Below are positions 1,583-62,519 of a DNA stretch of 64,000 nucleotides, piece after piece. The DNA comes from Phoronis australis (lineage: Eukaryota; Animalia; Phoronida), in NCBI GenBank assembly GCA_002633005.1, contig NMRA01000682.1, positions 144,148 to 208,147 on the forward strand. Reading direction: 5' to 3'. The notes under the pieces are model-generated. The model saw only the letters and a list, made by a program, of their open reading frames with translations. It ran no database searches and was not told where the DNA came from. The translations under genes and the position numbers were made by a program. Position 1 is the stretch's first letter, and every line of letters begins with the position of its first letter.

Positions 1583-2122
1583 GCGTTTAATCACGCAAGT
1601 ACATGACTTATTGAGAAGTTAAAATGCTCACAACTCACGTTGGAGGACAGTGACAAAATGGCGACTTTGCTGAATTAAGCGACATGTTCAAAAGGATCTT
1701 TGTCATTGGTGAAGGTTTACCTATGATGCATTTGATGACACTCTGCGTTGTCAAGAGTGCACACAATTTGGCATTTATATTTCCGTTTGCAGTTTTATCC
1801 AATTCCAAAAAATGAAGTTGCTTTCAATTTTGGCGTATAGACTGATATTTGAAAATCTCCTAGTTTTTACATGTACATAAACTGTTTTTTGTACTTCAGG
1901 CTACATCGAAGTCAGAAAATGCGACACATTTTATTTGATTCACAGTAACACGCTAGACTGAGTCGTCATGGTAACAGTTTACATGTCATCTTTCGATCGC
2001 ATTCACCTTACTGTGATGAGATCACTTCAGATTTAAGTTCCTAAATGTAACACTCAATTATTTGAAAACTGCAACTATTATTAAAATCTCTTTGTCTATT
2101 TACACCGACCTCTTGTCACTGT

Positions 2123-2172
2123 CACGACGTTTCGACGTTTCGGTAGGTCTATTCTCCGGCCATCGTCAGGTG
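2123..2172 (-). ncRNA. type I hammerhead ribozyme motif (left arm)
   Basis: Reverse complement reads CAC-CUGACGA-U-GGCCGG-agaauaga-CCUACC-GAA-ACGU-cgaa-ACGU-C-GUG; stem II 4 of 6 paired, GUC cleavage triplet. Confidence 0.6.
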
Positions 2173-2213
2173 TTTCCGCGTTCTTAGAAGAACGAGGACG
2201 GATATGTGGTAAA

Positions 2214-2290
2214 TCCGCGGTGTAGCAGTTAAAGTGCTGGACTCGAATTATCTGTAGTTTCAGAAGTGGGTTCAAATCCTGCCTCGGACA
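2214..2290 (+). pseudogene. tRNA-derived (Ser/Leu-like) segment, not a functional tRNA
   Basis: GTTAAAGTGCTGGACTCGAA resembles the D and anticodon region of class II tRNAs; GGGTTCAAATCCTGCCTCGGAC resembles the T arm and acceptor end. The D arm is shortened and the anticodon stem is broken. Confidence 0.6.
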
Positions 2291-2349
2291 AAAAATTCAC
2301 ACCAGGTTTGTACCACATATCCGTCCTCGTTTTTCTAAGAACGCGGGAA

Positions 2350-2399
2350 CACCTGACGATGGCCGGAGAATAGACTGACCGAAATGTCGAAACATCGTG
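2350..2399 (+). ncRNA. type I hammerhead ribozyme motif (right arm)
   Basis: CAC-CUGACGA-U-GGCCGG-agaauaga-CUGACC-GAA-AUGU-cgaa-ACAU-C-GUG: 3-bp stem I, stem II 5 of 6 paired, 4-bp stem III, AUC cleavage triplet. Confidence 0.65.
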
Positions 2400-4619
2400 A
2401 CAGTGTAAATAGACAAGAGGTCGGTGTAAATGGACCAATAGATTTTAATAATAGTTGTAACACGCCACCACCTCAGAGCGGTTTTAGAAAGTGATGTGGA
2501 AACTGTGAAACCCATCCGTTTATAATGTTTACCATCATCTAGTGACTTATCTACTATTGATACCAAACAGTGGTTTAGATTATTTCTATACCGAGGGATA
2601 CTAAGCATAAGTTTTGGTTCATGAGTACTATAAGTAACATTACTGTTTAGAAATCAAAGTAACGATACATCTGGGCAAGAAGTCACCATTCCGGAAAAGG
2701 AATATTTACAGAAACAATATCAACAGTAATAAAATATACACGCATTTGTACACACACAGAAAAGTATTTAAGAGATGCTTACAAAGGTAAGTTGATAGGT
2801 TACGCAAAGACATTTGATAGTAAACTTAAAATTGCTAAAAAACACTCCAAAACCAAATATCACTCCGTTATGTAATTTACCGTAACTTACTTTTAATGCA
2901 GAAAATGTCTTGTTGAAAAATTCCTTACACCAGCTTCAATAGGTTGTCGAAAGTGGCTACATATTTTGTTCAGCATCTCAGCCAGGTCAATGGTTATATG
3001 ATAAATTTCCATGAACCAAAAATTAGTCAATGTTGAACTACATTGCTGTTATAAATCAAGACTTCTTACAAGTCTCGTAACGTTACCTGCATATCGGACG
3101 ACTGGTAATTATTTATTAAGTTATTGAAATATTTGCAGATGAGTTGCTAGTAACTGTTGCAGAGACAGGACACGGCAAAATACTTTAATAAAAACTGAAG
3201 TTATTTAAATTAGCCCCAAAATGAAACTAACGCATGTTTTGTGTGATGCATTCCCAATAACAAAGTTTTTTTCATTTTTAGACATGGCAATAGCAAAAGC
3301 TACAAAATAAAACCAAAGCCAAAGTACCAATAGTCAAAGGAAAATCATTTCAAGTATTTACAGCCTGTTCTACTTCTTTCCGGTTACCTGTATATATACC
3401 GTTAGACAAAAAATAATTCGTAAAATTTTACCTTCTAACTTGTATGAGCACCCAAGCAGTCACAACTGTACATGGAAATATATTTCCCTTTTATGTATTA
3501 TGATGGCAATAACACCGAAAAAAGTTGCTGTGAATTAACAATAAACCTGTCAGTTTTGAAAAGGTGCGACATGTGATTCCTGCTCATGCGGCTTGAGCGG
3601 CAACAAAAGCCTTTAGACGATACTCCTTACATGAGCGTTTCAAAGGAAATATGAACAACATACAGGTGTTCGGTGTGCTCAGCGACATTTTAGAAGGACT
3701 TATTTAGATAAAATCTAGCCCCGCCCTCTGCTAAACGAGCTTTAGTGACGAGTGTCTGGGACTAACCTATAGTACACACCTCTTTGTTGACCGGCGCTGT
3801 TTTCATATGCGCAAAGGTTGCTAGGAAAATGTTTGACGTTTGTAGACGCACGAGCAACACGCTGGTGAGGTGAGTTGTGTTTGGGTGAGGTAATCAGGGC
3901 GATCAAAAAAGCAACTAATAAATGTGCAAATCCGGTAACAGGTTTCACTATCACTTGAGGACTTAGAAACATAAATCAAAATCAAATTTCATTGATTATT
4001 AAGAGATGAAAAACATTCGTCTACGTTATGAGTCGCATGCCGCCTAAAACCGAAAATCGTCTCCTAAATGGTGAAATTGTTTGACTTTACATGATTTTTC
4101 GTCTTCCTAACATTATAAGCAGGTACTTTCGTCCTTTACATAACGTATTTTTTCATTTTAATTTAAAATATTCCTGCTTTAATTTCGGACGTGCCCGAAA
4201 AAACGGCCAGACGAGTATATTTTTAGAAAAACCGTATGCAAGGGTCTGCTCTCGGAAACGAGCTACTTTTTAAGCGTTTGTGATTTTGAAAAGACACTAA
4301 AAGTTTTCATTGTCGCCTTCACAAGTCACGTTTGTGAAGTGTGCAAATTGGGACGGTACAAGCGTCACTGCTTTTACTTACAAGGTACCTATTGTACACT
4401 GTCTTGCAGGCTTCATTTCCTTTACAAAACGGGTCCAATAAAGACTTTTTACAATTGGTCCATGGAAATAAAACAAGACTTTACGAATTGGTGCATTCGT
4501 TGCCCTGACCGGGATAATTTTTTGCTCTTGGTTTGTTTCTTTGCATTCTAAAGGTCGCATTAGCACAAAATTGTCACAAAACCCCTAACTATGGAATAGC
4601 TCAAAGCCTGAAGTTTTTC

Positions 4620-7149: not shown

Positions 7150-7750
7150 CACAGTCAATCTCTGACACATTGTCTTGCCACGTACACTGTTCCTACTATA
7201 TCGCTGTGCCGCAATCTGCTCTCTGCCACCGCCGCCGACATATCCCACTTTATACCTGACGTGATCTCTACTCTAGCACGCCTCACCAAACTATCCTTAG
7301 AACCCTTCAACGTCATCCAGTCTCTATCTTTCCCGACCTTGGACTCCTGCACTAGTGACTTTGTTGGTAAGGCGACTTGCCGTATAGATCGACCCACACT
7401 CGTAAAAGTTGCTGGTACTCCCAACCATTTCCTGCGATGACTTTCCCCTCAATCAATTCCACGACGGTCAAGCGTATGTTATAGATACCCTGCCTGACGC
7501 CATACCAGTTTTGGCTATATTCCAAATTAAGTAACACCACATGTTGTATCTTCCTGGAAGTTTACTCGCGTCGATCTCACTCAGGTTCCCCACCATCATA
7601 CACGTACGTACTATTCACTGGCTTTTGGACTCCCTCGGTGTTGTGTCATAATTCTTGTCTGGGTATTTCAAAGGGTTCTTGTCCAGAGATGTTATGGATT
7701 CGCCGTCAATGCTGAAAGGATCATGGTGGCAAACTTGCCCCTTTTTCGGG
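7150..7750 (-). mobile_element. HERO-type retrotransposon, region after the RT domain, decayed
   Basis: GVPATFTSVG...LPTKSLVQESKVGK.R..MTLKGSKDSLVR...SGIKW...AESRLRHSDIVG, and FSIDGESITSL...PLKY; collinear with the 5270-6285 piece. Confidence 0.75.
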
Positions 7751-8400
7751 TATATCGTTTTTTCGACTTCCTCGAGAGCCCGAACTGGGGCTTAGGAAGT
7801 GGCTCGCGGTGGTGAAGAATGAAATCTACGCTGTTAATAGCAAGTATGAGGCCGTGAATCATCTCCGTGTCTGGGGCCGGCATTTTGTCGACAGTGATTT
7901 CTCTAACGAATACCGGTTTACCAAAGAACTATCCATACTTTCCATTATCTGTGCATGTTCACAACCCTTCTTCAGTATTTCATGATCAGTGTATTCCGGT
8001 TCGAACTGATAGGCTGTGAAACCTAACGATCCGACCCGTGAAGTCTTCGTGGGATGAGCTCTTGACTACTGAAGTCGGGATCGGCGCCGGGCGAGTTGCC
8101 ATGTATTCTGCGTTCTGTTTGAAAATGAATTATTCTCATCCTAACCAATGCGTATATAAAACTGAAACAAAGTCTGTCTCAATAGATACAATTTGTAATG
8201 CCTTTGCAGTATTCGTGAGTGCAAATGTCGAGGACCACGCTATGAATAAACCACTGCATTACCGGCCATTGATTCCGGCAATTAGGTTATTGACCGCATA
8301 CATTCATTTCCCAACGCAAAGTATCACCCGTCGCCCTACTATGGCAAAGAGAATCTTGATTATATGCAAAGAAAAGAAATGGATGTTAAGTCCTCTACTT
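7751..8400 (+). mobile_element. internally deleted Kolobok-like THAP element, partial copy
   Basis: Closely similar to 49730-50260; THAP remnant KWLAVVKN...LRVWGRHFVDSDF. Confidence 0.7.
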
Positions 8401-8439
8401 TTTTGTCGCTACTTCGTTGGGGATAAAACACCCCTCGGA

Positions 8440-9230
8440 CTTGGCCCATCCGCTTGAGAGTGTTTCGGATTTCCAAAGTGCCCGCAATAGCTTCCACAAG
8501 AGTGGGCACCACTTGTAGACTTTGTAGGACAATCCTGAAGGAGCCGCTGTTGAGCTCATACTTGCTTTTTGACCCCTTCCTGCACTTCACATTGCTCTGA
8601 CTCCCCCATTTCAAAGGTCACTCCTGGTTGATCCCCAATGATCATTCAGTCGGCTGGTGGTTGTGGATTGTCACGGCCTAAGTCGTTGTGCACCTACTTG
8701 GGATGTACCTGTAGTTCTTCTCTTGTGGCTTCCATCTTTCCACTAACCACCTTAGCCAGTAGCTGTTTCACGAAACCATAAAGGTTCTAGATGAATTTCT
8801 GTCTTCGTGTCGCGTAATCTTTGCGTTGATTTATTAGCCTTTCTGCTCGCCTCAGGTTTAACAGAAGGTCCCTCAGCTCCTCATGCAAGACCGCTAAGCC
8901 TTCTCTCCGTCCGTTAGCACTCATGTAGATCAGGGTAAGGTGTCGAAGTTCTGCACGGATGTCGCTTATTTTTCTTTGTCTTGGAATGGGTCCCGCTGAT
9001 GTTTTGTTCTCTTTTTTGTTTCACAATCACTCTAATTCTGTCCTTAAAGACATCGCGTCTGTTATTGTTGACTTCTTTCTTTTAACAGATCTTTTCAATG
9101 ATACCTTCCAGATGCTTTTCAGGTTTTGATGTAACTGACTATTGTGTATGCATTATTTGGCCAGGACATCTTCTTTACCGGTTGCGAGTTGGCCAGATCA
9201 TTTTCGTGTAATCGTCTTGTCAGTTCTTCA
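8440..9230 (-). mobile_element. HERO-type retrotransposon, region before the RT domain, decayed
   Basis: Minus-strand fragments RQRKISDIRAELRHL, LRRAE and YGFVKQLL resemble the basic helical region that precedes RT in HERO elements. Confidence 0.65.
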
Positions 9231-10189
9231 ATGAGTTGCATCGGAGTGCGAGGAACCGACAAACTCTAATTCCACCAGTAATTGCAGCTTGAAAAAACAA
9301 ACTGTTAACTAAAACTATTTCAACGTATCATGGAGTATATTGCGAATGAGTATACACCCTGTACAATATAGTGCAAATAATAAAAATATGACATTATGTA
9401 AATTCACTTTAACGTACCCTCTCCCTAATTTTATTAGGACTGGCCCGTTAATGGTTGCTCGTGGAACTATTTCCGTGACTACGATAGCCCGTTCTCAAGC
9501 CCTATTCAAGACCACCGGCGTTCACGCCACTTTCTGTTTTCAATCACGAGAATTCAGCCAGAGCAGACTCCCGTGTAGGTATGTGCTATGGGAAAGTCAC
9601 CCAACGGCGTAATACGATTATGAAATATGTAGAAGGCGCACTGATACCTCTATTGCAACAGGTCGTGGGTAGTGGATCATGGGTCGAGGGAGTTGTGGGT
9701 CGAGAAATGTGGGGATCGAAGGGGGTTTCAGAAAAATCCTATTCTTACATTCTTGCTCACTTTCCCACACATGCTGCAATTGTTGTCGTCGAGTTAGGCG
9801 TTGTCCTTTGACTGTCGTTGGTCGTCACGGTCATGTTGGTTCTTCCTCCACCCCCGCTCTTGCAGAATTCTGGGGGCTATTCTCTTTGCAAAATATGTGG
9901 GTGTCGATCTTGAAAATCGACTGCAGGATTGGGCTGCAAACTCGTCTGCCCCGTCCAGCCTATCGCGGATATCACTTGTCCACGGTTATCGTTTTATTCA
10001 TCATCGCCACCATCAATAGCATCATTGTCAAAATCATCTCCTTTCCCCACTAATCGTCCGATACTCTTTGCAGTCAATTTTTCTACAGGTGTCTCCTCCG
10101 AGCGCTTTCATCAAATTACATGTCATATTTTTCGTCTCATTCGCACGAAATTCTCACAAAGCTTCGGAATAGCTCGACTGTTATTATTT

Positions 10190-10840
10190 TTCGTGATGAT
10201 CGGTTTCAAAATGGCGGATGTGCCGGCCATTATGTTTTCAATTCGGATTCAATCATACACCATTATTGTAGCAGACTACAGTAGAACGGTTGTGTTAAAA
10301 TTGACGGTAATAGCGGACATTGCGTTTGGGCACTTCGATCTTGCAACGAGAACATTTTATCCTGCTAAATGCGCATTGTAGAACCAGTTGCTTCGAAATT
10401 GTATGTGTTAAATTCATGTAAGTATTTGTTATCGAATGCTAACTAACGGGAATGGTGTATCTAACACATGTTCATGACTATTCAGTCGCGATGGGATTTT
10501 ATCTTGAACAAATTGGATTCTTTACCAATAATTCTTTCAAATGAATAAGAACATTTTTTCTCAGACGTACAATTTTGGAGTTACTTGACTTTCCGTTTAA
10601 AAATAAAATGCAAAATTTAAATTCATTTTGGAAAATTTGTGAACTTTTGTGAAAATGCTTTGTTAGATTGAGTTTTGAACAAGCTTGCAGAACGCTAGGA
10701 CGTCTCTTTTTTAATTATCTGGGATTTTCTGAATATGACGATGTTCTTTTGTTGACTGATTTTTGCTACACTTTTGTTGGTTGACCTTCTATTTAACAAG
10801 ACTATCTTTCTTACTCATTTCTGACATCGTCATGCCTCAT
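10190..10840 (+). repeat. interspersed repeat, diverged homolog of 4620-5250
   Basis: Same collinear blocks, followed by a degenerate (CAT)n tract. Confidence 0.6.
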
Positions 10841-12298
10841 ATGATTTTATCATCATGTTCATCATGGCCACTATCATTATCATCATCAGGATCATGATTG
10901 CTTCTATTGCCAGTTATCTTACATTGTTTTTTTCCGTCGATTTAGCCAAGTGTCGCTCATTCGAAAGCTTTTGCTTTTTTGTTTTAAAAAAATTTAGAAG
11001 GAGGCTTCGAACTATGGAGCTGAACCATCTTTTTTTCAAAATTAGTAATCGCATTGTGTCTGCGGTAAATGGTACGCCACGGTATCGAAGAAGTATAAAA
11101 TTGTAAACTTTAAAACGATACCAGTACTGCTTTGCGTGAACTGTGGCGTAATCCTAGCGGGTGAATTACGAACAGCTGTTAACAATCGTTTACTTTGGTG
11201 AGGTTTCTTAAGACCGTACTACATATCTCAATGAAAGACTCGTGTTTCACGAGTACGTTACTGACCTTACAAGCGTACGCAAACAAGTTGGCCGCTAGCA
11301 ACTTGGCTAAAACCAAAGATCACAAACTGGTTCAACATCTGGGTCAGCAATTACTATTCTTTTTATTATAATCTCAAGGTACAGTGCGTGCCTACATTTC
11401 TCTGCTCGAGAATGTCATGTTTTACGAGGATCCCTGCCAAATCTTAGTTTTCACGTGTGAAACCTTGCATTAAAGATATTCGTACGAGATTGAACTCGAA
11501 ATGGCCGATATTGGTAGCTCGAATCTAAAAGTAATCAAGTGCGAACTCGTGCCAGAATCTCGTCTCAGAAACCATTAATTACATGTATAGTAGGCTGTTA
11601 CTGCACATTAAGTTTCTTTTTGTAGTGAAGGAGGGCGGAGAATGCCAAGCACACATGTAAATTTGAATTCGTTTTCGAGTGACAAAGATTAGACCCCTGG
11701 TACTGGGCTATCTTCCATCACAACTCTAGACATGTAATGCCAAGTCTCGCACGTAATCCATACATGTTTGTGTTAGAGCTTGCGACAACGAGATTTCACG
11801 GGACTGGCTGAGAGAATTTACAAGGTGAAATTCCGCTTGTCTGCTCGACTGTGCTTTAATCGAGTGTTGTAGTTATCAATCACGTCTTATTTCACATACA
11901 TTTTTTCGTTTTGTACAGAATGGATTCAGCAAGCGAGACTCTTAATGCACGGTTTCAGGTAACCAGCGATTTTGTGGCGAAATTAATCAACATACAATGT
12001 ACGCATCAATAACTCTGCCCTTTCCTTATATGCACTGACCCGTGATCCTGACTTGTTGGTACGTAGCGTAATCTGGTCTGTGATGTTTTTTTCAGCCCCG
12101 GCCTTAGAGACACTTTCTACACCCTATCGCACTACACGTTAGGAGTTTTTCAACAATACAATTTCGAGTATGGAAATCGTGCTACTTTACAGGAAAATGG
12201 CATTTGTGTTTGTTGTGCACTTATAACAGAAAAGAACTGGTGTGTCTACGTAACTTCCGAAAAATTACTGTTGTATTCATTTGCGTACATGTAGCTAA

Positions 12299-22681: not shown

Positions 22682-23143
22682 CCGGGGTCTTCTCCACAGA
22701 ATGCAAAGAGTGGTGAGTTAACCATACCTATGTTATATAGAAATTTACTAAGAATTCTGTAAGTAAGTCTAATTTAGAATCATTTGATCAGGACCACAAT
22801 GTTTAAGTTTGAAAGGACTGTTGTCAACACTTGAAGAATACTAAATAGACCACGCTATAGAGATTCAAAGTTGTGACAATGGATGCAAAACAAATGTAAT
22901 AAGGGCTGGTGAGAATGGGAGAAAAATTATCAAGTCTGTTCAGCAAATAATTAAACAAGAAATGCTGGAAATCAACACTGAGTTAGCAAAGATAAAAAAA
23001 GAAAATAAAGTACTCAAGGAAGAGATTAGTAAACTAAATCAAAACTCACGGAGAAACAGCATAAGAACACATGGAGTGAAACAAGACACAAAGAATAGTT
23101 TGGAAGTAGCAACAGACTTTGTAGAGAAAGCATTGAACATCAA

Positions 23144-23315
23144 GATTGACCCATCGCTGACTGATAGAGCCCACCGGTCACTACATATTGGACGATCTAA
23201 CTTCATACAGCTACCAAATTCTTAATACGGATTGACCCATCGCTGACTGATAGAGCTCACCGGTCACTACATATTGGACGACCTAACTCCATACAGCTAC
23301 CAAATCCTTAATACG
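23144..23315. repeat. ~86-bp tandem duplication inside LINE ORF1
   Basis: gattgacccatcgctgactgatagagc...cttaatacg occurs twice. Confidence 0.9.
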
Positions 23316-24453
23316 GCTTGTAATGACAAAAGAGTTCTATCCAGTTGGTCCAGTGGTGCAACGAAAGTTATATTGCGTGACGTCAGAATTACACATATGG
23401 TTGACGACTTTTGAACTTCTATACAATTGAAGAACGAAGACGGACATGAACTTCACCGGCATTTTACGTTTTGTGCTGTAGTTACATTGTATGGAAGTGT
23501 GAGTCCAGGTGTCAATTACTGGTACAGTGTATACATGAATTGTTATAATTAGTTTTGGAAATGTCATAGTGCTTTACTTCAGCTTGTACTATCAAGTACA
23601 AGATAGATAAGGGTTTTTTGTTAGATAGTGGTTAAATTAAACAGTATTACCTTAAGTTACAGGGGGTTGAACAATGAAACAAAGAGACATCAAGTATTTG
23701 ACTTTTTAAAAACGAAAAGATTGACGTAGCCTTCTTACAGGAAACCTATAGTTCGTAAGTGTCTTTATCTAAATGGTGTTTAGAATGGGATGGTTGCATT
23801 TTTGCTTCTCATGGTTCCCAACATAGTAGGGGAGTTGCTATCCTCTGCTCCAGAGCCACAGATTTTACATACATTGGCCAAGATCCAGCTGGTAAATATG
23901 TGTATTTGGAGGCCATTGTACACAATATCACAATTATTTTCTTAAATATTTACTGTCCGAACGAAAATGTTGCTGAATTATCTTTTCTAGATCAAATAGA
24001 TTCAGTTTTATCCAAATATGGAAAAAGTAAAAATATCTTCTGTGCAGAGGATTATAACTGTCCCTTATAAACAAACAGAGTCTGAGGGGCACAAGCTCCA
24101 AGCAAGTTGTTATAGCCCGTATAAGTAGTCTACATGTATCTAAAAAGTATACTGTTTTTGACGTTCGGAGGTATCAACATCCTGGGAAGAAACAATTTAC
24201 ATGACGTGATAAGTATTTTAATTCCTTAAGTAGAATTGGTTACTGGCTTTGTTGTTCCAAGTTTTTAAGGACCACATTAAAATTGGTATTCTTAACTATT
24301 TTATATATTTTAACCATGCTGCTGTTAAAATTGCAATTACCTTAAATGATATTTGTGCCAGAGGTCCTGTTTTTTGGAAACTTGATATCAGCTTTTTAGA
24401 AAATGATGTCTATGTATAGAATTTGAAAGAAGTTATTACAAAACTGGTGGAGG

Positions 24454-24691
24454 AATATGTAGACTAACCAATATGTAGACTTAACCAATATGTAGACTAA
24501 CCAATATGTAGACTTAACCAATATGTAGACTTAACCAATATGTAGACTTAACCAATATGTAGACTTAACCAATATGTAGACTAACCAATATGTAGACTTA
24601 ACCAATAAGTAGACTAACCAATATGTAGACTTAACCAATTTGTACACTTGACCAATATGTAGACTTAACCAATATGTAGACTTAACCAATA
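24454..24691. repeat. 17/18-bp minisatellite inside LINE ORF2, about 13 copies
   Basis: (aatatgtagact[t]aacc)n. Confidence 0.95.
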
Positions 24692-27269
24692 CACATACCA
24701 AATGGGAAATGATCAACATGAAAATCAAGGAGCACACAGTGCTTTTTTAAAAACAAAAAGGACAACTCATAATAACAGAGAAGAACTCACTAGTTTGGTA
24801 AATAATTTGACAGTTGAATTACAAACGGGTAACTCAAACAATGAACCTATGGAAGACTTGAACGGAGCCAGAGCAGAATTACAATTATTGCAGACCCAAC
24901 AAGTAAAAGGAGAGATGATCAGAAGTCGAACTCAATGGATACAAAATGCAGAAAGTAACTCAAAATATTTTTCTAACTTAGAAGAAATAAACAACAAGAA
25001 AAATTTATTACAGAGCTTAGAAATAATAATGGACGATTAATTAGATGTCAGGGCTTAATAAGAAGGAAATTTATGATTATTTCTCCAAGTTGTATAGCAA
25101 TTTGGGAACAAACTTAAATTTTCTCAATCTGCTTGAATTGCCTGACACTGTCACTTGTGATGCTAAAGACGACTGCGAATTACAGTCATTAGATTTCTGG
25201 AGACGAATAACATTGTCAAATATTGATTACAATTTGTTTACCAAAGTTATGACGTCAGGTTTAAGTACCTGTACGCAGCAGTTGATACATATTAATCAAA
25301 GTGCTGTTAAAGGGACATTTATTGGTTACAATATAAGAATATTGGAAGATGTTATTGCGTAAACAAACTTTAATAAAGTTCAAGGTCATAGCCTGTTTTT
25401 GGACTTCAAAAAATCGAATGGGAATTTATACATAAGCTTTTGCATGCCTTTAATTTTGGACCCATTTTAAAAAATTTCTTAACATTCTCTATAACAACCT
25501 CATTCCATGTGTGACTAACAATGGCCTGTCCACTAACTACATGTATGTTAAGCTTAAAAGAGGTGTCATGCAAGGAGACTCATTATCAGATTAGTTATTT
25601 TGTTTATGTGTCGAAGTAATAAAGAATTGTATTAGAAATAATAATTTAATTAGAGGTATTAATATTGAAGGAAGTGGATTTAATGTATTGCAGTACGCTG
25701 ACGAAAGAACACTTTTACTCCAAGAACAGACATCGGGTTTCAATTTATTAGACTTCCTTCAAAGTGTTGTGGTAGTGTCTGGGTTAAAGTTCAATGCAAA
25801 TATGTATGATGGCCTTCATCTTGGCAAGTATATGGAATGCAAGGACATTTTGTATAACTTTAAATGGTCTGGAAAGCCAATCAAATGTTTAGGCAAATAT
25901 TTTGGACACAATAAGGAAATAAAAACAATGCCTGTTATTGTGATGACAAAATTAAAACTTTTCAAAAAATATCACACATACATGTATGAAAAAGGGGAAA
26001 TATTCCTTTACTTTGGAGAATTGAGGTGATAATAATGCATGTTATGAATACCTTAGATATGCCTGCTAACAAAATACAGAATATAAATAATATTATCCAG
26101 GGTTTCAACTGGCTAAATAGATCCCCATGAGTTAGAAGAGATATTGCTGTGAATAGTAGGGAAAGAGGGGGCTTAGCTGTTCTGGATGTCAACATTTGGT
26201 ATAAGTCCTTGTTATTTAAATGGAATAAACGTTTTTAGAAGGAACAAAGTAAAGAATGGGATATATATCACCTAAATATGTCTAAAGAAAGTACCGTGGT
26301 TGTTTAATCTTAAAATCCAATTATGCTTATAAAAAGAAACTCATAGAAATTATCAGTTTATTGCACTCTGATATGTTATGGTCCTGGCAGAATATAACAG
26401 ACTACTTACATAAGAATTTTGGTTTGAAAAATCGAGTTGTATGGAATAACAAAAATATTTTGATAAATGGAAAAACCGTGTTCTACATCAGCTACTACAA
26501 TCCTGGAATTACTTTTATTTAGGACTTCCATGTATCGATAATAAATAGATATCTTTGGAGGTTTTGAAGGAAATGTACATGTATAAGCTAAGCAATTGGA
26601 TAAAGTTCGAAGCTCTGGCCAAGGCAATGAAAATTTCAGATAGTCCGGTTAATGATAGAGCTAGCAGCATGCATGACATTACACCGTATCAGATTGTTAC
26701 GCGATGAACAATAGATGTATTACTTTCCATAGAGATATAAGTTCCTGATGCGGAACACAGTTTTTTAGCATTTTTGCCGACAAGCAAATTAAATAGATAT
26801 ATGTTGTGCCTTTTAAACTGTTGCTCCAACCTCATTTAAAAGTTTTTAAGTAATATCACATTCATAAAAAAGTTTACACAAACTATACTTTAAAAAAAGA
26901 TTGAAAAAATCAAAAACGACAAATGCTAATTTTGTGGACTAAACAGAAACTTTTAATCCCGTTTTTTGGATTGTGAGCATGTACTTTCGTTTTAGTATGA
27001 ATTGCCAACTTGGATTTCAAACCTTATTGGAGGTAACATTTACTGAGTGAAAAGCGTGTCCAGCTATTTGCATATTTTGGGGATCAATGTTTTGACATAA
27101 ATCTTTTATTAACTTTGGCTCAGTAGTTAATATACACTTGTTCCAAGTCTTCGTGTATTACTGTACTGATTGTTCCCATTTTTTGACATTGAAAGGACAT
27201 GGAAAAGTATATAATCTTGAGAATCAACCCCCGACTTAGAAGGATTTTTGAAAACCTTATACATTCAGT

Positions 27270-35793: not shown

Positions 35794-37867
35794 GGGGAAT
35801 GCCACCCATAAACAACCTATTTTGCATCAATTTAAATCGAGTAGTTCCACACCATAACAGCAAGAAGGGTTCTTTTACCTGACGGCAGACGGAAGTGTTG
35901 AAATTAACCAATGACGTCAGAGGTTCGAGTGAGATGTGCTCAGCAGTGGCAACACGCTTACTGGTGTCAACTTTTTAATTGACTCATCGTTTTAAACAAA
36001 TAAACCATCAAGATTCGTTGTAAAACCTTTACGTGTTGTTTTATTTCACTGATACGAATTTATAGGTATTTGAACGCACTGTAGCCTACAATGTTCGGCA
36101 GGCAAACCAAGGTCTGTCGATGGAGTTTGGAACCTGTTTGGTGATAAATTCGACTTATCCTTCCGTGTGTTGTAATTTTAGACTTGCGGTCTTTTCAGTT
36201 CTAAACACACACGGCGCTTTCTTATACCGGCCAGTGGCTCGAAACCCGATCAGGCCCATTGCGGCTGGACTGAATACATCACGAACATAAACCAGCCAAA
36301 GTTCGAAACTAAACTAAAAGAGTAAATTAGTGAGCCAAACAATATGCACGTGATTATTCTGGTGAATTAGCCACGAAACTGACGAAACTGAAAATCTACT
36401 TACTGGCAGGGGCCGCGAAGCCAGGTTACCTTTCCGCAGAACCGTCAGGGAAAAGTTGTCAAGTAATAATGATTGGAATAATATATATCTAAGTAAAGAT
36501 TCCCCTAACATCTAACCATAGGATATAAAAACGAGTTATTGTGTCACATCAGCTTTCTGTCAGCAATCATTGCATTAGTATGCGCTCATACGTCCTCGGT
36601 GCCCAGTCAATTAGTGCTATTTGCACCTAAAACCGGTAGGCCTAACTCATTGATTTATTCATTACGGGATTCTCAGAAAATTTGCACTCAGGAACACTCC
36701 AAAAGAATTACACGTTGTATCTAATGAGACGGGCATTGTTTCATTTTTATAGAAGCATTGGTTAGGGTGAGAAACAGAACCCACAGTCATAAACGTTAAC
36801 ATCGAAACTCGCAATCCCGACTTAGAGGGCCCTCTTGGAAAGCAGTGCTATCACTGAAGAGGCCACCCTCATTTTAAATATCACAATAATAAATAAATAA
36901 ATAAATAGACGAGTGCTAATCCGACGAAGACTTCACAGGTGGATCGTTGGGTTTCACGAACTATCAAGAAATACTACAGAGGCACTGTGAACGTGCACAG
37001 ACTACGCAACATATGGATAGTTCTAAAAACCTTTTGAATGACTTGTCATGGTGTCAGTGCGCCAACTGCTCGATAATCCAGGAAACGATTGACGCTTGCG
37101 TTCGCTGCCATGAAATTCTGCAAGTGAAACGCCTTCTTGGAGAAACGCAGATGTGACTAACGGACCATCCTGATTTTGCATCGCAGGCCAAACAGAGATG
37201 TGCTTACGATGTTCTTAGGGCTGACAAAAGTAACTGCCGAAAACATCCTACATACCAAGGACCAAACAGAAGCCTGAAGAACGGGTAGCTTAAGTCGTCA
37301 CATAGGTTATATAAAACGCTATGTCCTTGACTTGAATTAAGTGCAATTGTTTATGTTTTCAAGATCAACTACAATTCTCCATAATCAAAAACTGGCGAAC
37401 AGCTGATCAGAGTTTCTTTTCTCCTACCTCTTAACGCTAACACACTAGCCACAGCATCTGACTTCAGCCTCAGTCTCTTTCTATGCCCTGGCATGAGCTG
37501 TTTGGTAAGGTGGCGTTGGTCAGTGAAATCACTGTCGACGAAATGCCGGTCACAGACACGGAGCCTGTTCCACGGTTTCATACTTGGAATTCACTGCCGC
37601 GAGCCACTTCCGAGGCATTATAGACTCTCGAGAAAATCGATTAAACGATTTAACCGCTTTCCTCGCACAAGCTGGAACGATGAGACCACACCATAACGGC
37701 ACTCACTCTGCATAAGAACCGCTGACGTCGCTGCGTCGCTTCTCACCTTCCTTTTAGCTTAACGCGACACTTCTCGGCGAGGTAAGATCGACCGTATAAG
37801 AGGTAATGTGGATATAGACCGATTACGACGGTAAAAAATAATAGTGAAATCGGGAAGCATTCTCCTT
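35794..37867 (-). mobile_element. Kolobok-like DNA transposon, internally deleted (THAP ORF on minus, P2X7-C-terminus-like Cys-rich ORF on plus)
   Basis: TTAA on both sides (35790-35793 and 37868-37871); imperfect TIRs GGGGAATGCCACCC and GGAGAATGCTTCCC. THAP motifs LRVCDRHFVDSDF...LRLKSDAVASV. Convergent ORF with WCQCANC...ACVRCHEI...DHPDF. Confidence 0.7.
36826..36906 (+). mobile_element. very short 5'-truncated LINE 3' end with (TAAA)n tail, inserted in the Kolobok-like element
   Basis: Stem-loop agggccctctt...aagaggccaccct plus aataataaataaataaataaat; absent from the homologous position in the 49493 and 7751 copies. Confidence 0.55.
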
Positions 37868-40800
37868 TTAACACTACAGCGTACCATGCGTAGCTCAGTT
37901 TACTGCAATTGCGCAGAAGATTAATCCACAAATTTGTTACGCGATTATATGTTGATCTTACAAAAATTGTTTAGGATCAGTAGTCTGTTTTCGCCTAAAG
38001 ACCATTTACATTTATTCACACGCGCGCAAGTCGCGTATGAATTCTGTTGTGCACATTGAGGTGGATTGCTCTAAAACCCCTTCGTCCGCCGCACCCCTCT
38101 ACCCCCTCGATCCACGACTCCCATGACCCACAACCCCTCGACCCAGTCTACACAAGCACGACTCAATCTCAACATAGAACAAGCGCTGACTCACATGTAC
38201 AACGAGTCGGCTTGTAAGTTAGGCTCGTTTTCCCTGTTTTTGCAATTAAGAGAATCGATTCGGACAGTTTGAAAGCCAAAACAGAGAAAAAAAAACAATG
38301 CAACCAAATGAAATCAAAGACCTATCAATTGTACAAATGTCGTTCCCGGCAGAGCGTAATCATCTCGTCTGCTCTTCAGTGAATAGCAGAATCAAGGTTT
38401 TTTGGGAGAGTTCGATCGAGGAACCGACGAATATGTAATTTCTTCAGCAAAGCAGTTGGAAAAAATAATAACAGAAAATATCGCAATGTGATATGGAGTA
38501 CGCCCTCTATTGTAAACGAGTATACAACAGAAAGCAAATAATCAAAATGTGAAATTATGTACATTCACGTTGATCTAAACTCTCCCTAAGTTCAGTAGAA
38601 CAGGGCCATTGGTAAGCCGTCATGGAACTATTTCCGTGGCAATTGCTGGATTACGTGAGCTTTTCAGATGAACACAGTGAGAGAGCTGGAGTACATATAT
38701 GTAAACATTGGTTTGCCAACTTTCTCCCCTTACTCGCGCTGACATATTGATAACAACACGGCTGTATCCCGACTAGGCAATCACTGATATCGGGATATCC
38801 TACAACGCTGGTGTGTAACGGTATAAGACTATAAATAATATGGCACGGCTTAATGTGAGTCAGTTAGGTTATAGTAGAGTTGAGAATTGAGCTAGATTTG
38901 AGGAAAATTTTAGTTGAAGTTAATTTGAGTTGAAGTTGAAGTTATGACAGAGATTAGATACAGCAGGTTATTGAACCAAAGATTGTAACATTTGCTAGAA
39001 GTGCCTTTGGATTTCGTCACAAGTCAATAAATGTATATGATATTTTAACTCATTGTACAAAATGATACATTTTGTTAACGTTTTTAGTTTGTTTATTTAA
39101 GAACAGTTACAGATTTAAAAGGATACTAAACCCTATTTTGATGACTTCCACCAATCCTCGTTCCGTCACCTTGTTATGAATCATTGGCTTCAATTGTGAA
39201 ACCCAAAGGCAGGAATCAACTAAAAACTCAAGCTCTATATCTCATAAATTGGATATTACTACAGTCCTTGACGGGAAGTCTTTTCCACAGTTTTCTGTAA
39301 TTCGCTAAAAGCGTAGGTCACGCTTGACCATTTAGCAGACATTGAAAGTTTTCAAATTTGCCTCCATACTTTTAAGGCTTGTTGAGGGTTACAGAGCTTT
39401 ATTTTGTTTCAGAGAACTCGATGCTAACGTTGCTCTTAGTATATGTTAACAGGCCAAGTCCGGGTTTGGTATCCTCTTAAGGGAAGCTGGTTTAATCCTC
39501 TTGGAATATTATGTAATCTAAAGCTGATATTAATAAAAAACAACCACGGTTTTAAGTCGACTTGACATGTTTCGGTGTCATTTATTCACACAAGACCATC
39601 AGAAGAGAGATATTCAATGGCCACCTAGATAGGCTCAGCAACAAGTAGTGAAGCCCAGATACAGTCCGTTATAGGGAGTGACAATGTACTAGACCAACAA
39701 TGACAACCTGTGTTGTGCCAGTTGCCTATTGAGATTGTGCTTGCACCAACTGATGTTTTAAGCCTCACGAATTTTAAGCTCCTTTGTTGTTGCTGCCTGG
39801 TCTATTATTGCAAAGTCAATGAAAGAGCATTACTGCTAACAATGATTGGAGCTCTGTAGATGAATATTTACATGTGAACTTCTGTCAGAATTTAGATGTT
39901 CATTGGTCCTGATTTTCAAATGGCGAACAGTTTCGCCCATATAACTGTTCTAAAGATTGCTGAATTTGGTTAAATGTGGGTATCACAACCAGTCAATAAA
40001 TTAACATATTGAATGCACAAAAGAAAACCTTTGCAAAGTATTTTATTTTAAATAGCAAAAAAATCCTCACATTTAAGAACGGTATTTTTATGTCTCATTC
40101 AGAAATGTTTTGATTGCCCTCTTGCCGTTGCCCACAGACGTTAAGGGCGGTAGCCAAGGTTCTCTTCGTTCACAGTTCACCAACTGGTGATTCTACGTTC
40201 ACAATAAGTCGGCGTTTTTTCAGTCGTATATTAAGTGCCGTAGCATAATTAATTCTGGTCATATCTTTGTTCGTGTTTTTTTAAACGGAAGCATCTACCC
40301 CTGAGAGGAAATCGGCGTATGGTGAACACTCAACAGTGACGCTTATTCGAAATTTGGAAATATATTCCACAAACGCGGGCTTCTCAGTTTCATGCAGACG
40401 GTGAATCCATGTCGGCATGTCTAAAGAGCCAAATTGTGTCAAACGCGAGACAAAAGGGTCCATTACCTTTGATTCTTACTAGAGTAGACACAGGGCACTA
40501 CGTGGTCCAATTTGATAACACAGTAAGGCTTTCTTTTTACTTTAATCTTGTTAATTATAGAGTCATAGTATGGCAGGAAACACGAACGTTGGGTTGATAA
40601 AAAGCAGACACTTCAGTTAAAACTTTCTTAATAAAGAAGACGTGAAAGATTTGGAACCTTTATCAGCATCGGGAGCTTTTTGATGTAAATGCTCATCAAA
40701 TCAACAGGAGACAATTTCAGAGGTAAGGAAAGCAAAAGTTAATTAGTCGGACGCAGCTAGCTCCGTTCAATTCATGATTAAACTGCTTCTGTAAAAAATG

Positions 40801-45540: not shown

Positions 45541-45979
45541 GAAACCAAGAAATGGTATTGGGAATAAATTTTGTTTATTAGTACCACAAAGAAATCACAA
45601 TTATCTGAGTACTAAGTAGTAGACAAAACAAATATATGCATTACACACATGAAATATGGTGCCTGAGTACATAAAATAATTTGTTTGACAGTAAGCAAAG
45701 TAGATAAAGCAGTACGATTGTGACATAACCTTGCATTGCGAAAGTATGTTGGGGTAGGAGCCTTTTGTTGTAGTTGGTACCTTTGTCGAAGGCCAGCACA
45801 TCATTACAGTAGACTCTTGCCAGTTCCTCATTTATGACGAAGAAAGCAAAAAAAAGCCTGATTCAAAAATAAAAATGAAATTTTATTCATAGCCATGTAT
45901 AAGAGAAAAAATCCTTCATTAACTAGACAAGTTTACTTCAAAAGATGTATACCGTATAGAATGCGAACAGTTCGTCCCG

Positions 45980-46125
45980 TCAGCACGCCATCTTTCTGGT
46001 CACATCACGTGACCTAATGAATGTAAGTCCGAAAAGATTTCTGCCCCAGACAGGGACGGGGGCAGAAATCTTTGGATTGACATTCATTAGGTTACGTGAT
46101 GTGACCAAAAATATGGCGTGCTAAG
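45980..46125. mobile_element. foldback pair of SINE bodies (family of 33258-33378)
   Basis: agcacgccat...gtcacatcacgtgacctaatgaatg...agatttctgcccc and its reverse complement, separated by about 10 nt. Confidence 0.7.
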
Positions 46126-48125
46126 GGGAAAAACATGTCTTTCTGAAGAAGATATATTTATACATACCTTATAGAATGTACTATAGGCAATCCATTGTTA
46201 TGGTTATTTTGGTACTTATATTTAAATTTCAGATAAACAATAAACAAAACCCAAATAACGAATGTGTTTTATTGTTTTTTGTTTGGTTTGACTAAAATCG
46301 GACCTGATCATGAATCTTCCAATAATCCATAGATAGGCTTAAATGAATATTCATGTCACAGGCGTACTGTCAGGGCCGTAATAATGTTTCCACTTCACAA
46401 TTGCCAAGTAAAGGTTTAGTCCAGTTATCATTAATACCTAATAGCCTGGAAATAATTTGTTAACTTTTTTCAGTAAGTAACAATTATGAGCATGTTTTTA
46501 GCTAATTTATTTATTTATTTGCTAAATCGAGTTTTGGGTATTTGTCTGAAACATTAATGTTGAGTGCAAGACCAAATCTCCGCAGCCAGAGCTTTATAAG
46601 GAAAATGATAAAATGTTATTAAAAGTGTCATGTCAGCAGTGTTTTCTTTCACAGAGACACACGTGTGCATAATGAGGGGGCTTAACTGGATTTCCAAAAC
46701 TGTCTTGATAAGAAATACTCACAAGCATAAGCAAAATACAGGTGACAGATTGCTTCTTATAGATCTTTTCAGTGTAGTGGACACTGCTTAGCTTCTGCCA
46801 CAGTAACACCCTAATGACAATTGCAGCTGGTGATACCCACCACCCCAGTGAGTATGGAAACAGCAAGTTGCATACAATGCCCTCATCCTCAGACATACTT
46901 ACAGTATGTGAGGCTGAAAAAAAACACATTAATTTTGAGTTTTAGTTTAAACATGACCTCAACATGAAGAGAAATATTGTTTTCAACAACATTCTTGTTG
47001 GTGTCAGCATAGCTGCAAACTTTTTGTTGTTCTTCACAAAGCCAGTGATCCACTATTAATGAAGTTTTAAGACAGTATAATTTCAGAATTTCATGTGTCA
47101 TATTTTAGTGATACATAGCAAATGTATTTTATTACATGTTTTCAGTTTTGTTACATGTACCTATAAAGCTTGTGTTATTACTGATGAAAGAAAACAATAA
47201 TAATGACTTAACACAAAAGTTATGTAGAATCGGTTCTATTGAGTTAAGAAACGAGAGCTCCAAGCATACCTGCATGTGAAGAGACCGAACATCAATTGCC
47301 ACCTAAGCCTATTCCTCTGCACATGGCTCAGTACTCCAATCATGTTGTCACTGTAGCTTAAGTATTGTTGTACAGTTATTGTTGGTGAAGTGGTGATGCA
47401 CACTACGACGAACCTTTAAAAACATGATAATCACATAAATGCCAATCTGAGAAGTACATTTATAATTGATCAATACATTCCATAGGACACACATTTACGC
47501 AAAAGTGTGAGTGTACCAGAAATTGAAACTTCAGAGTTTAGCTGTTTCTAGACTGATTAAGTTAGTTCCTGTGTTAACTTACCAATACTGATGCTAGAAG
47601 TCTGTAACAACTGACATTCAAGGAAGATAGATGATTTTCGAAGCACTCTTTAGACCCTCGGCTATGTAAAGTGATGCATTGTGTTCTTGATAAAGTGAGT
47701 CTGCAAGGGCCTAGTCGCACACTCAAATTCCAAGAAAGGGTACATTAGTTAAAAGAAAGCACTGTCATTAACCTTCCCCTGTCCCTATCCCTTTTATTTA
47801 CCCAATGGAAACCATACAACTGATAATACAAGGTGTAACCTGCTCGACCTTTTGCCTTTGAGAAGGTCCCATAAATAGTACATTGTCCTGTAACGATGTG
47901 ACCACTCCCCGTGTCCTGCAATTTGAGAACCAGATTTCTTCACTGAATAACAGGCATCATATTTGTTGCATCCCATTCCCAACCATGGTTTTGTATGATC
48001 TCGGTTTTCTCGAAACAAGCTTCAGCCTAGCAACACTTCCCAAGTTTGCTTGCATTCAATCCAAGGCTTCATCACTGATCCAGTGGTTTGTGTTCAAGTT
48101 GACTACATGTAGCTAGCTGACTAGT

Positions 48126-48541
48126 CAGTGGTGGACTAAGAGGTGGGGGGCTATGGCCTCCCTAAAATTCTCCCAGCTCCCATTTGGCAGTTTGGGGGTG
48201 CAAATGTTTGTCGAATTAAATCCTGGCTAATACTCTGCCCTGTTCCCCCAACTCAAAATCCTGGGTCTGCCAAAGGGCGAATCCAGGATTTTGAGTTGGG
48301 GGGCAGGGCACAGGAATAACCAGAATTTCGCGACATGTGCGCGCCCAGCCTGATGTAGGTATGCGGGGTCTCAAATTTTCGGGTTTGTGGACCTTATTAC
48401 TAAAAAAAGACATAAACGGTAAACGGGGTTTGTTCAAGGGGCATATGCTAGTCAGCAATTCGCACCCGGACTGCCAAATGGTATCTGGGAGAATTTTAGG
48501 GGGGCGTGGCCCCCTTGGCTCCTTCTTAAATCCGCCAATGT
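48126..48541. mobile_element. two adjacent, oppositely oriented copies of the GC-rich MITE family
   Basis: 48126-48272 forward; 48273-48541 is a longer reverse copy ending in aatccgccaatg. Confidence 0.7.
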
Positions 48542-49492: not shown

Positions 49493-50260
49493 AGGAGAAT
49501 ATCACCCGATTTAATTTCTCTTGTTTACCATCTTAATCGGTCTATATCCACATCGCCTCTTATACGGTCGACCTCACCTTGTCGAGAGTTGTCGCGTTAA
49601 CCTGCGAGGAAAGTGAGAAGCGTTGCAGCAAGGGCAGTGGTTCGTCTGTAGAGCGAATGTCGCTATACTGCGGTTCATCCTTCCCGCTTGTCCGAACAAT
49701 GAAACTGCGAAGAAAGCTAGTACATTGTATATCGTTTTTCGACTTCCTCGAGAGCTTGAAATGCCTAGGAAGTGGCTCGCGGTAGTGAAAAATGAAAGGT
49801 ACGGTGTTAATTGCAAGTATGAGGCCGTGAAACATCTCCGTGTCTGTGGCTGGCATTTCGTCGACATTGATTTCTCTGACGAATTCCGGCTTCCCAAAGA
49901 ACTATCCATACGTTCCGTTGCCAGTGCTTGTTCACGTCACCTCTCCAGTAATTCTTGATCAGTATATTCCGGTTCGAACTGATAACCCGTGAAAGCTAAC
50001 GATCCCACCCGTGGAGTCTTCGTCGGATGAGCTCTTTTCTAAGTCGGGATTGGTGCCGGGTGAGTTGCCATGAAGACGTTTATTATTCTGCGTTCTGTTT
50101 CAAAATGAATTATTCTCATCCTAACCAATGCTTATATAAAACCGAACATAGTCTGTCTCCTTAGATAAAATTTTTAATGCCTTTGCAGTATTCGTGAGTG
50201 CAAATTTTAAGAAGCCTGCAATGAATAAACTTATGCGTTACCGGGTTTTGATGCCGGCAA
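49493..50260 (+). mobile_element. Kolobok-like THAP element, internally deleted, match ending at an N
   Basis: TTAA|AGGAGAATATCACCCG terminus homologous to the 37867 end. THAP ORF PACPN...FRLPRE...KWLAVVK...LRVCGWHFVDIDF joined to an opposite-strand GYQFEPEYT remnant. Confidence 0.75.
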
Positions 50261-51429: not shown

Positions 51430-51676
51430 AACAGTTAAATTTGGACAATTTTTACAACGTGAAAACGTGGCTGCGAAGCAGTAAAGGTACGTGTCGGACT
51501 CCATAACTTTGGTATAACGTAACATTTTGGGGAAGTGTTTGACCTCTATTTATAGACACCATAGGACTACCTATGTGTCGAATTTGGTGAAAATCGGCTG
51601 ACCCCCACCTTGCAGCTGGATGGGTGGTGCTCTCGTGGACTAGGTACTTTTAAGTACTAGTCCACGAGAGCACCAG
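51430..51676. mobile_element. back-to-back termini of the TTAA-GTACTAGTCCACGAG element family
   Basis: ...ggtgctctcgtggactaggtacttTTAAgtactagtccacgagagcacc...; the left part matches 22018-22222 in reverse. Confidence 0.65.
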
Positions 51677-61199: not shown

Positions 61200-62519
61200 T
61201 TTATTTTGTAATTACTCTCAGGCCCCACATTTAACTGTGTCAAAAATGTAGCTGACGCTTGTAGTAATGGAAATAAACTGACGCCATGGACGAGAAGCGA
61301 AGGACTTTGTTTCAAGAAAACTCACGGCAAGGTGAAAGGTACACTGACGTCAATTTCTCGATTTGACATATCACAAGCTCCCCCATCTGTGAAAAGTCAG
61401 ACATGCAAACAATATGTCAGAGGCAAATATATGTACCTGGTTGAATCAATGAGTGTTTTTGCACTAACCAAAAGCTCCTCGACAAAGACATTACCCGATG
61501 CTTTTCAACAGAGAATCGTATGTTCATGATGTGGGAATTTGTAAAGGCGACGATCAAAAAATAAGAGTTCGGGAATAAGTATCTGGGATCCAACGAAAAT
61601 GCGAAGAACCCCACCTTCACCTGACAAATGACTGATGCGATATGTTCATGCAAAGCTGGGTATGTACCATGAAGTGGAATTATCTGAACGATGTCATAGA
61701 TTTCAGGACCTTTGGAACAACATCAGAGAAGATTAATCTATATTCTTATTCTGTTGTCTGCTAAAGTCCGCCATATGAAAAGTACGTCACAACAGGAGGG
61801 AACTCCCCGAGTATTAAGTAGGTCGGGTCGATAGCACTGTTTACGCGTTTCTTCTCTTCGAACGAAATATTTTGATTACATAACCTCAGGTTCACAGCTC
61901 GAGTACACATTCATCTTGAGCTAGCCAACCGGCTAGCGCCGGTAGGTCTAGGGCTCTGCCTAAGTCAAATTAATGAATGGAATTGGCCGTAATTGCATCA
62001 TTAAGGCATTCAAGTTAGGTCTACCTTCTGATGAACTTGGCATTTTTGTAATTTCATTGCATGAAGGAAGCTTTCAGGTACTTTTAAACGTAAAGTGGTC
62101 ACTAAGCAGTGGTATGGTTACAAAAGATACCAATTCTGGTGTAGTGGTAAAAAAGCTATTTACAAAAATAACTCAAGTTCGTTTTTAAAGATTCATAAAT
62201 CTAAATATCGAGTTTTGAACAGATTCAAAATAGCTCTCTCTAACTCTACAGGCGAAGTGTATACAACAGGCTCTCATCAAGTAATTCAACTTGTTTAGTT
62301 TTTCGTGACATCAGCTCGAATAAGGCTTTGAGTTAAATAATCCAGTGCCCCTCTTTGTGCCAATCGAATCTCTCAATTCTGGAAAGAAGGTCAGTTGAAC
62401 GCCAGCTTACGGGTATGTGAATAACAAAAAATTCTGCTACGAAACACAACGATGTCGAAACAATTGAAAATTAATAAAAATGACAATGAAACAACAGTTC
62501 AATAAATAAAATAGGAGGT

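Follow-up and report, generated by a model that had tools for sequence, protein, structure and literature searches.

A multi-copy repeat of Phoronis australis that probably couples a tRNA-like head to a Penelope-type hammerhead end

SINE-like short parasites normally rely on LINE enzymes. Those derived from tRNAs are described as carrying A and B boxes near the 5′ end within a length of 80–500 nt (PMC8969392). The insertion footprint reported for Penelope-like elements (PLEs) consists of an inverted 5′-truncated copy at the 5′ end and a 30–40 bp tail, often present at one end only (PMC8557442). According to the account of the Anolis element PAc, its ORF starts at helix II of a hammerhead, and reverse transcription starts internally at two sites in an AC-rich stem-loop about 111–118 nt into the ORF. 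The tail corresponds to the stretch between these two start sites, and hammerhead cleavage is dispensable for insertion in vitro (PMC11167929). The traits given for PLE hammerheads are an unpaired base after A9, a G10.1–C11.1 pair and a palindromic 15.2–16.2 (PMC4209133), and the in vivo role of hammerheads in metazoan PLEs has been described as unknown (PMC7761336).

Here we analysed an insertion within a 64,000-nt stretch of Phoronis australis DNA (hereafter the window), which is AT-rich and eukaryote-like. The insertion very probably represents a real, multi-copy element with a PLE footprint, of which the tRNA-like head is an integral part. The copy in the window is aged, with a degraded head. 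The repeat is short and abundant and joins the tRNA-like head to the hammerhead-bearing end of a Penelope-type element; with a probability of about one half, we read it as a non-coding hitchhiker that Pol III would transcribe and that a Penelope RT/GIY-YIG protein would copy in trans.

Among the described systems, the EN+ Penelope/Poseidon PLEs, such as PAc, share with the element a type I hammerhead with an ATG at helix II and an AC-rich stretch downstream (PMC11167929), as well as the one-sided tail of 30–40 nt and the inverted 5′-truncated arm (PMC8557442). Unlike PAc as described, the element has no open ORF from the ATG, carries a head with tRNA-like A and B boxes before the hammerhead and has a helix III lengthened through an 8-nt duplication. 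The schistosome repeats Sm-alpha and Sj-alpha resemble it as short non-coding repeats in which a type I hammerhead comes after a Pol III-type promoter. However, they are described as tandem repeats cut to monomers, whereas the two arms of the element are paired head-to-head, with a PLE tail and a helix I of 3 bp; neither a PLE partner nor a PLE footprint appears in the passages of the Sm-alpha descriptions drawn on here (PMC6765202, PMC2770079, PMC8490949). The metazoan non-LTR retrozymes are likewise short non-coding hammerhead repeats, for which an origin from PLE end repeats and mobilisation by PLEs have been proposed (PMC7229834, PMC7761336, bioRxiv 10.64898/2026.07.22.740005). In these accounts they form tandem arrays and circular RNA and are said to lack promoters, whereas the element carries a promoter-like head and lacks tandem units at the locus. 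No head-to-tail units were found there, nor any tail-to-head joint among the 15 of 21 joints listed. The TRIMp3 elements (Cassandra, Helenus and Ajax) share with it a Pol III promoter derived from a small RNA and placed in the terminal repeat, non-autonomy and independence of LINEs, but use LTR-retrotransposon machinery (PBS, PPT) and, as described, have no hammerhead and no PLE footprint (PMC10886601). The separate parts of the element are each already known, and Sm-alpha sets a precedent for joining promoter and hammerhead. In the full-text literature consulted, neither a PLE end repeat with a tRNA head nor a tRNA SINE mobilised by a PLE was described, and the supplements of PMC4209133, PMC8557442 and the 2026 preprint could list such elements.

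Anatomy of the insertion and of its family

The insertion comprises a forward unit, made of head, hammerhead, post-hammerhead region and tail, and an inverted arm in front of it (Table 1). Copies were surveyed through contigs and RNA reads aligned to the region, which is present in four DNA runs from one sample. The read depth is about 120 in the flanks and 8,000–50,000 within the element. In the X1 contigs, it amounts to 121 in the right flank, rises to 7,500–11,000 across the greater part of the head and reaches about 40,000 in the 5′ half of the hammerhead. Further on, it is 106,000–110,000 at 2424–2447 and 58,000–42,000 at 2460–2483, a 3′-biased profile across the element. Summed depth is no copy number but serves as a rough guide, by which the family holds several hundred insertions, with the head detectable in about a fifth of them. 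This agrees with the preliminary description of the locus, which had proposed a multi-copy element. The depth of the head is about a fifth of that of the tail (11,000 vs 58,000), partly through truncation and divergence, and the depth ratio of arm end to tail is about 2:1.

Table 1. Features of the insertion, in positions of the window
Feature	Position	Strand	Basis
Whole insertion: inverted arm and forward unit (head, hammerhead, post-hammerhead region, tail)	2072–2492		Depth jump, loose contig ends
Inverted 5′-truncated, tail-less copy of the forward unit (corresponds to 2311–2457)	2072–2211	–	131 of 147 alignment columns identical
Type I hammerhead motif, left arm; predicted cut between 2126 and 2125	2123–2172	–	Pattern match at –2169; one of 11 drawn pairs does not form
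tRNA-like head; A box about 2218–2228, B box 2269–2279	2213–2290	+	Perfect B box; family A-box bases
Spacer: A-run after the head, no T-run terminator; 6-bp hairpin 2328–2343	2291–2349	+	Sequence, fold
PLE-type type I hammerhead motif, right arm; predicted cut 2396^2397	2350–2399	+	Pattern match; all 11 drawn pairs form
ATG at the start of helix II, TAG at codon 5	2359–2373	+	Translation
Post-hammerhead region, with the highest abundance in the family; T4 run 2443–2446	2400–2457	+	X1 depth
One-sided 35-nt AC-rich tail	2458–2492	+	Absent from left arm; contig ends at 2492

The left end of the insertion is marked by the loose ends of 13 X1 contigs. On the right, the element had been taken to end at 2457, but 83 X1 contigs have loose ends at 2492, which is the real boundary. 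There, these 83 contigs, together with 77 X2 contigs and 70–82 reads per RNA run, enter mixed sequence. Beyond this point only about five letters are common to the copies, after which agreement falls to 0.43 among the 83 X1 contigs; the tail of other copies accordingly extends about 5 nt further than in the window. The left arm has no such tail. Position 2447, at one stage considered as a third class of 3′ end, was later read as a diverged sister tail. The word tgtaacac, once suggested as a target duplication, proved not to be one, given that its right copy (2456–2463) lies inside the element and its left copy (2046–2053) lies 18 nt outside; the true flanks have just a 6-mer in common.

The two arms are near-perfect inverted copies, as originally noticed, and their alignment contains 9 mismatches and one 7-nt gap. 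Furthermore, a base at 2197/2325 is common to both arms and absent from about 99% of the family depth, which indicates that both arms came from one source. They had been viewed as fixed brackets around a tRNA segment. Instead, the unit consists of head, arm and tail, to which insertion added the left arm as a further, truncated copy. The arm junctions differ between copies, which rules out fixed inverted termini. The palindromic layout of the locus could also point to a MITE whose terminal inverted repeats derive by chance from the hammerhead region. However, the tail is one-sided, the junctions vary, the depth is 3′-biased and there is no target duplication; neither fixed symmetric inverted termini nor a target duplication of fixed length was found, and a MITE origin is extremely improbable.

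The insertion carries two marks of an EN+ PLE, namely an inverted 5′-truncated copy joined at the 5′ end, with a junction that varies among copies, and a tail of 30–40 bp at a single end. Together with the depth bias toward the 3′ end, they substantiate the PLE-type insertion that had been suspected from the letters. As for the marks of a tRNA-derived SINE, the unit has A and B boxes near its 5′ end and a fitting length of about 280 nt, and a target site duplication with a LINE-type 3′ tail was not found. The insertion ends in a PLE-type tail, with neither poly(A) nor a simple repeat.

Hammerhead motifs, arm junctions and the predicted cut

Hammerhead cores are located at +2353 and –2169, both facing outward, and they are the only two pattern matches in 64 kb, whereas 100 dinucleotide shuffles gave 0.03 matches per window on average. 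The fold drawn for the right arm has a 3-bp helix I (2350–2352 with 2397–2399), the CUGACGA core at 2353–2359, an unpaired U2360, a helix II (2361–2380) starting at the G2361–C2380 pair, the GAAA at 2381–2384 and a 3-bp helix III made by an 8-nt duplication, with the cut predicted after C2396. All three traits listed for PLE hammerheads in PMC4209133 are present here at the motif level. The drawn fold is not the one of minimum energy in either arm (–1.3 vs –7.9 kcal/mol on the right, –1.8 vs –9.4 kcal/mol on the left), and the Rfam hammerhead models found no match in the window. Thus, of the full hammerhead core that had been reported for each arm, the motif stands, in two outward matches, and the Rfam search did not second it. 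Copies of the family differ in the 8-nt unit from which helix III is built: a one-unit, minimal form of the hammerhead occurs in 17 X1 contigs (6% of the depth) and in 36 of the 136 X7 reads. Across all 26 variants recorded, none at ≥25% of the family falls in the catalytic core, an outcome that by our estimate has a chance of about one in four and does not prove selection.

Among the 15 of 21 joints listed, at least seven connect opposite strands: 2228>2396, 2309>2395, 2320>2395, 2320>2404, 2336>2448, 2344>2396 and 2387>2461. Side length or matching microhomology identifies 2228>2396, 2344>2396 and 2320>2404 as head-to-head. For 2336>2448 and 2387>2461, the side lengths suggest the same arrangement; the overlap values misfit 2387>2461 and 2320>2395, and the direction is ambiguous in four of the seven. 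Two further joints, 2137>2394 and 2141>2390, were discarded as inversion junctions, for they represent an 8-nt deletion.

Four of the seven listed opposite-strand joints end at 2395–2396, beside the predicted cut. The chance that 4 of 14 ends fall in four positions is about 4e-5 under a uniform model and 6e-4 with a guessed weighting by depth; restricted to the two firm ends at 2396, the chance becomes 0.004–0.06, and both ends at 2395 could reflect alignment trimming next to the mismatch of the window copy at 2394. The clustering is suggestive of a scar left by hammerhead cleavage.

Between the predicted cut and the 3′ end of the family further downstream lie 96 nt. Self-cleavage therefore cannot make the 3′ end of the copied RNA, and the proposal that it does so had to be given up. 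The 3′ ends would be better explained by internal start sites of reverse transcription, as described for PAc (PMC11167929), and the tail is likely the stretch between two such sites. Moreover, cleavage at the predicted position would leave promoter and tail region on separate pieces of RNA, so that head-bearing copies would need RNA that is uncut or re-closed.

tRNA-like head, transcription and coding potential

The head has the only perfect B box in the 64-kb window. By chance 0.47 B boxes per window are expected, and a B box within 200 nt upstream of a hammerhead match occurred in none of 100 shuffles. Family bases at 2226, 2227 and 2233, each in 95–97% of the depth, recreate a string resembling an A box, and three extra bases occupy the variable-arm region of the head in 48% of the family depth. 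We presume that the head resembles a Ser/Leu tRNA. Rfam reported no tRNA match to the head or anywhere else in the window, although it detected tRNA heads in six of the seven metagenome loci tested; ARAGORN made no call on the head at default settings and called 2213–2290 only at 80% of its threshold, a setting that gives 28 calls in the window. Hence, of the tRNA-like segment with a B box that had been noted, the B box is secure and the tRNA identity is weaker. From its sequence, the head is likely an internal Pol III promoter.

The head is bridged to the hammerhead in at least three other contigs, among the 8 of 1221 pieces listed, so that the two are joined in other copies as well, in accordance with the preliminary description. 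One of the listed joints carries the inverted arm into the head. Two copies start at the head start: the window copy and the expressed copy in X7, which likewise aligns from 2214.

The first T4 run of the family is at 2443 and another lies at 2482, so that two such runs come before the end of the tail. The T5 run at 2330–2334, which we considered as a terminator of the family, is a private mutation of the window copy: position 2332 is C in 97% of the X1 depth, just as a later mutation had been supposed. RNA reads map to both strands and show no sharp boundary on either side, which points to co-transcription rather than to Pol III output.

These reads, the minority depth of the head and the failure of Rfam and default ARAGORN to recognise it would also fit a decayed tRNA or SINE head that was captured once beside a PLE end fragment and has been carried passively since, with no working promoter and with read-through transcription. 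In addition, metagenome loci such as L020, L030, L033 and L038 have a shared tRNA-like head before unrelated hammerhead sequences, which indicates that chance adjacency of head and hammerhead does occur. However, the A and B boxes are better in the family than in the window copy, the two copies mentioned above begin at the head start, and no separate family with the same head on another body appeared among the 12 of 195 loose ends listed. We consider passive carriage of the head improbable.

The ATG at 2359 agrees in register with the start codon of PAc, and an AC-rich stretch follows about 100–115 nt downstream of it, mirroring PAc as described (PMC11167929). The frame closes at codon 5 in both arms, and no family variant at ≥25% opens it, which favours a non-coding, SINE-like derivative of a PLE. 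The window copy has no ORF for RT and GIY-YIG. Nevertheless, the unit could be the pLTR (end repeat) of a protein-coding PLE, a repeat that would start with a tRNA-derived head, in which case the short two-armed copies would be by-products of 5′ ends and the ORF would lie out of register, downstream or after splicing. Besides the register of the ATG, an adjoining frame at 2357–2491 is free of stops for 45 codons. Furthermore, 17 X1 contigs diverge at 2447 into long unaligned ends that are partly tail-like (about 18 of 30 letters by eye) and possibly represent a sister family running on, and the mixed loose ends could conceal coding copies. On the other hand, an open frame of 44 codons arises in 13% of shuffles, protein searches with the peptide of 2357–2491 returned one repetitive match (P0002) and no convincing homologue, and the 83 X1 contigs that end at 2492 cease to agree after about 5 nt. 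Given the early closure of the ATG frame in both arms, a coding element of this kind is a credible possibility that we hold to be somewhat less than probable. It would be a protein-coding retroelement with a tRNA-type promoter, likewise unusual.

Elsewhere in the window, a separate PLE remnant at 62632–63042 gives a weak Pfam match to GIY-YIG and has 47–63% identity to seven proteins, three of them with RT. PLE machinery has thus existed in this genome. A link between the element and this remnant was rejected, for the two belong to different families and their DNA does not align beyond 15 nt. No relatives of P0004 were found in viral contigs.

Proposed copying route and related repeats

For the reading of the element as a Pol III-transcribed hitchhiker of a PLE, we propose the following putative model. 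Initially, the A and B boxes would direct Pol III to begin at about 2213 and to read through the hammerhead; tailed copies could arise only if transcription leaks past the T4 runs at 2443 and 2482. The PLE protein would then bind downstream of the hammerhead and nick both target strands. Synthesis of cDNA is assumed to begin internally at two sites, near 2457–2460 and 2492–2497, as in PAc in vitro. Two cDNAs primed on opposite strands would afterwards join at their 5′-truncated ends, yielding a tailed and a tail-less arm arranged head-to-head. In the window copy, one arm may have reached the head start (2212–2214) and the other may have halted at 2311. On a template already cut by the hammerhead, the cDNA would stop at 2396/2397 and give short, promoterless copies, and the head would be inherited through uncut RNA only.

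An extended form of this model is possible but doubtful. It would have a Pol III SINE run on Penelope rather than LINE machinery, with the truncated copies recording in vivo cleavage at 2396^2397, which was sought and not found in PAc RNA-seq. The 8-nt duplication would have given the 3-bp helix III, and ribozyme alleles active as monomers or only as dimers would set the ratio of promoter-bearing to promoterless offspring. A count of inversion junctions across several hundred short copies, set against the predicted cut, makes in vivo cleavage testable by means of genome sequence alone. If the hitchhiker reading is true, PLEs join LINEs and LTR elements as drivers of parasites with Pol III promoters.

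We also searched other sequence collections for similar arrangements. The exact 26-nt arm motif had no match in metagenome contigs. The pattern of a B box plus a hammerhead had none in viral contigs and occurred at 42 loci in metagenome contigs and at 5 in prokaryote genomes. None of these 42 and 5 loci is homologous to the element beyond the B box or a 14-nt word, and many of them are prokaryotic tRNA genes or chance matches. In 19 pattern loci, inspection by eye of the frames of ≥110 codons revealed no evident PLE ORF. One family, comprising L005 with its duplicate L017, L023, L025, L027, L031, L032 and L042, lies in animal-like DNA. It has no homology to the Phoronis element, and its hammerhead folds as type III in six of seven cases. 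Its tRNA head is Rfam-positive in all four loci tested, and partial tandem and inverted copies are present, which shows that repeats combining a tRNA with a hammerhead arise repeatedly.

Diverging contigs and the PLE remnant

At window position 2447, 17–18 contigs in sets X1 and X2, aligned to the main element (2072–2492), diverge from the alignment, and their onward sequence partly resembles the one-sided 35-nt tail of the element. These contigs possibly represent a sister family. Toward the other end of the window lies a remnant of a Penelope-like element (PLE), whose GIY-YIG frame shares 47%–63% identity with RT+GIY-YIG proteins and is followed by two degenerate hammerhead-like strings, recognized by eye near positions 63226 and 63544. 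The PLE remnant and the main element are separate families.

tRNA heads and hammerheads in metagenome loci

Among the loci retrieved by the B-box-plus-hammerhead pattern search, one repeat family has a unit of about 320–330 bp with an Rfam-positive tRNA head, a T5–6 run and a type III-like hammerhead. The units occur in partial tandem and inverted arrangements, and the copies end just 3' of the hammerhead. This family is independent of the main element. At a single locus, L009, a strong tRNA match precedes a hammerhead-like string that by eye has the look of type III. In eight further loci (L003, L006, L015, L020, L022, L030, L033 and L038), a common tRNA-like SINE head precedes differing minimal hammerhead sequences; these are probably nested abundant repeats rather than a single family.

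Other repeats in the window

Features in the window and in metagenome loci
Feature	Location	Strand	Basis or detail
LINE ORF1/ORF2-like broken frames	22845–26029		by-eye likeness
PLE remnant, 5'-truncated	62632–63042	+	GIY-YIG frame, protein comparison
Short palindromic elements, MITE-like (n=3)	45975–46129, 48218–48328, 51625–51675		
Dispersed repeat, ~530 bp	7750–8281 and 49727–50260; also 36643–37868		
Complex tandem arrays	55339–61201		periods ~430 bp and ~1.2 kb
Two short repeats	1800–1873 and 2900–2956		elevated DNA depth, RNA reads
tRNA match plus hammerhead-like string	L009:1094–1253	-	55.9 bits for tRNA
Metagenome repeat family	L005, L017 (duplicate of L005), L023, L025, L027, L031, L032, L042, around pattern match		animal-like contigs

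The broken frames look by eye like fragments of LINE ORF1 and ORF2, and a Pfam search of them gave no clear match. Pattern search of the window found no hammerhead match in the three palindromic elements. The dispersed repeat shows 84% identity and has more fragments. Besides the main element, the two short repeats also display elevated DNA depth together with RNA reads.
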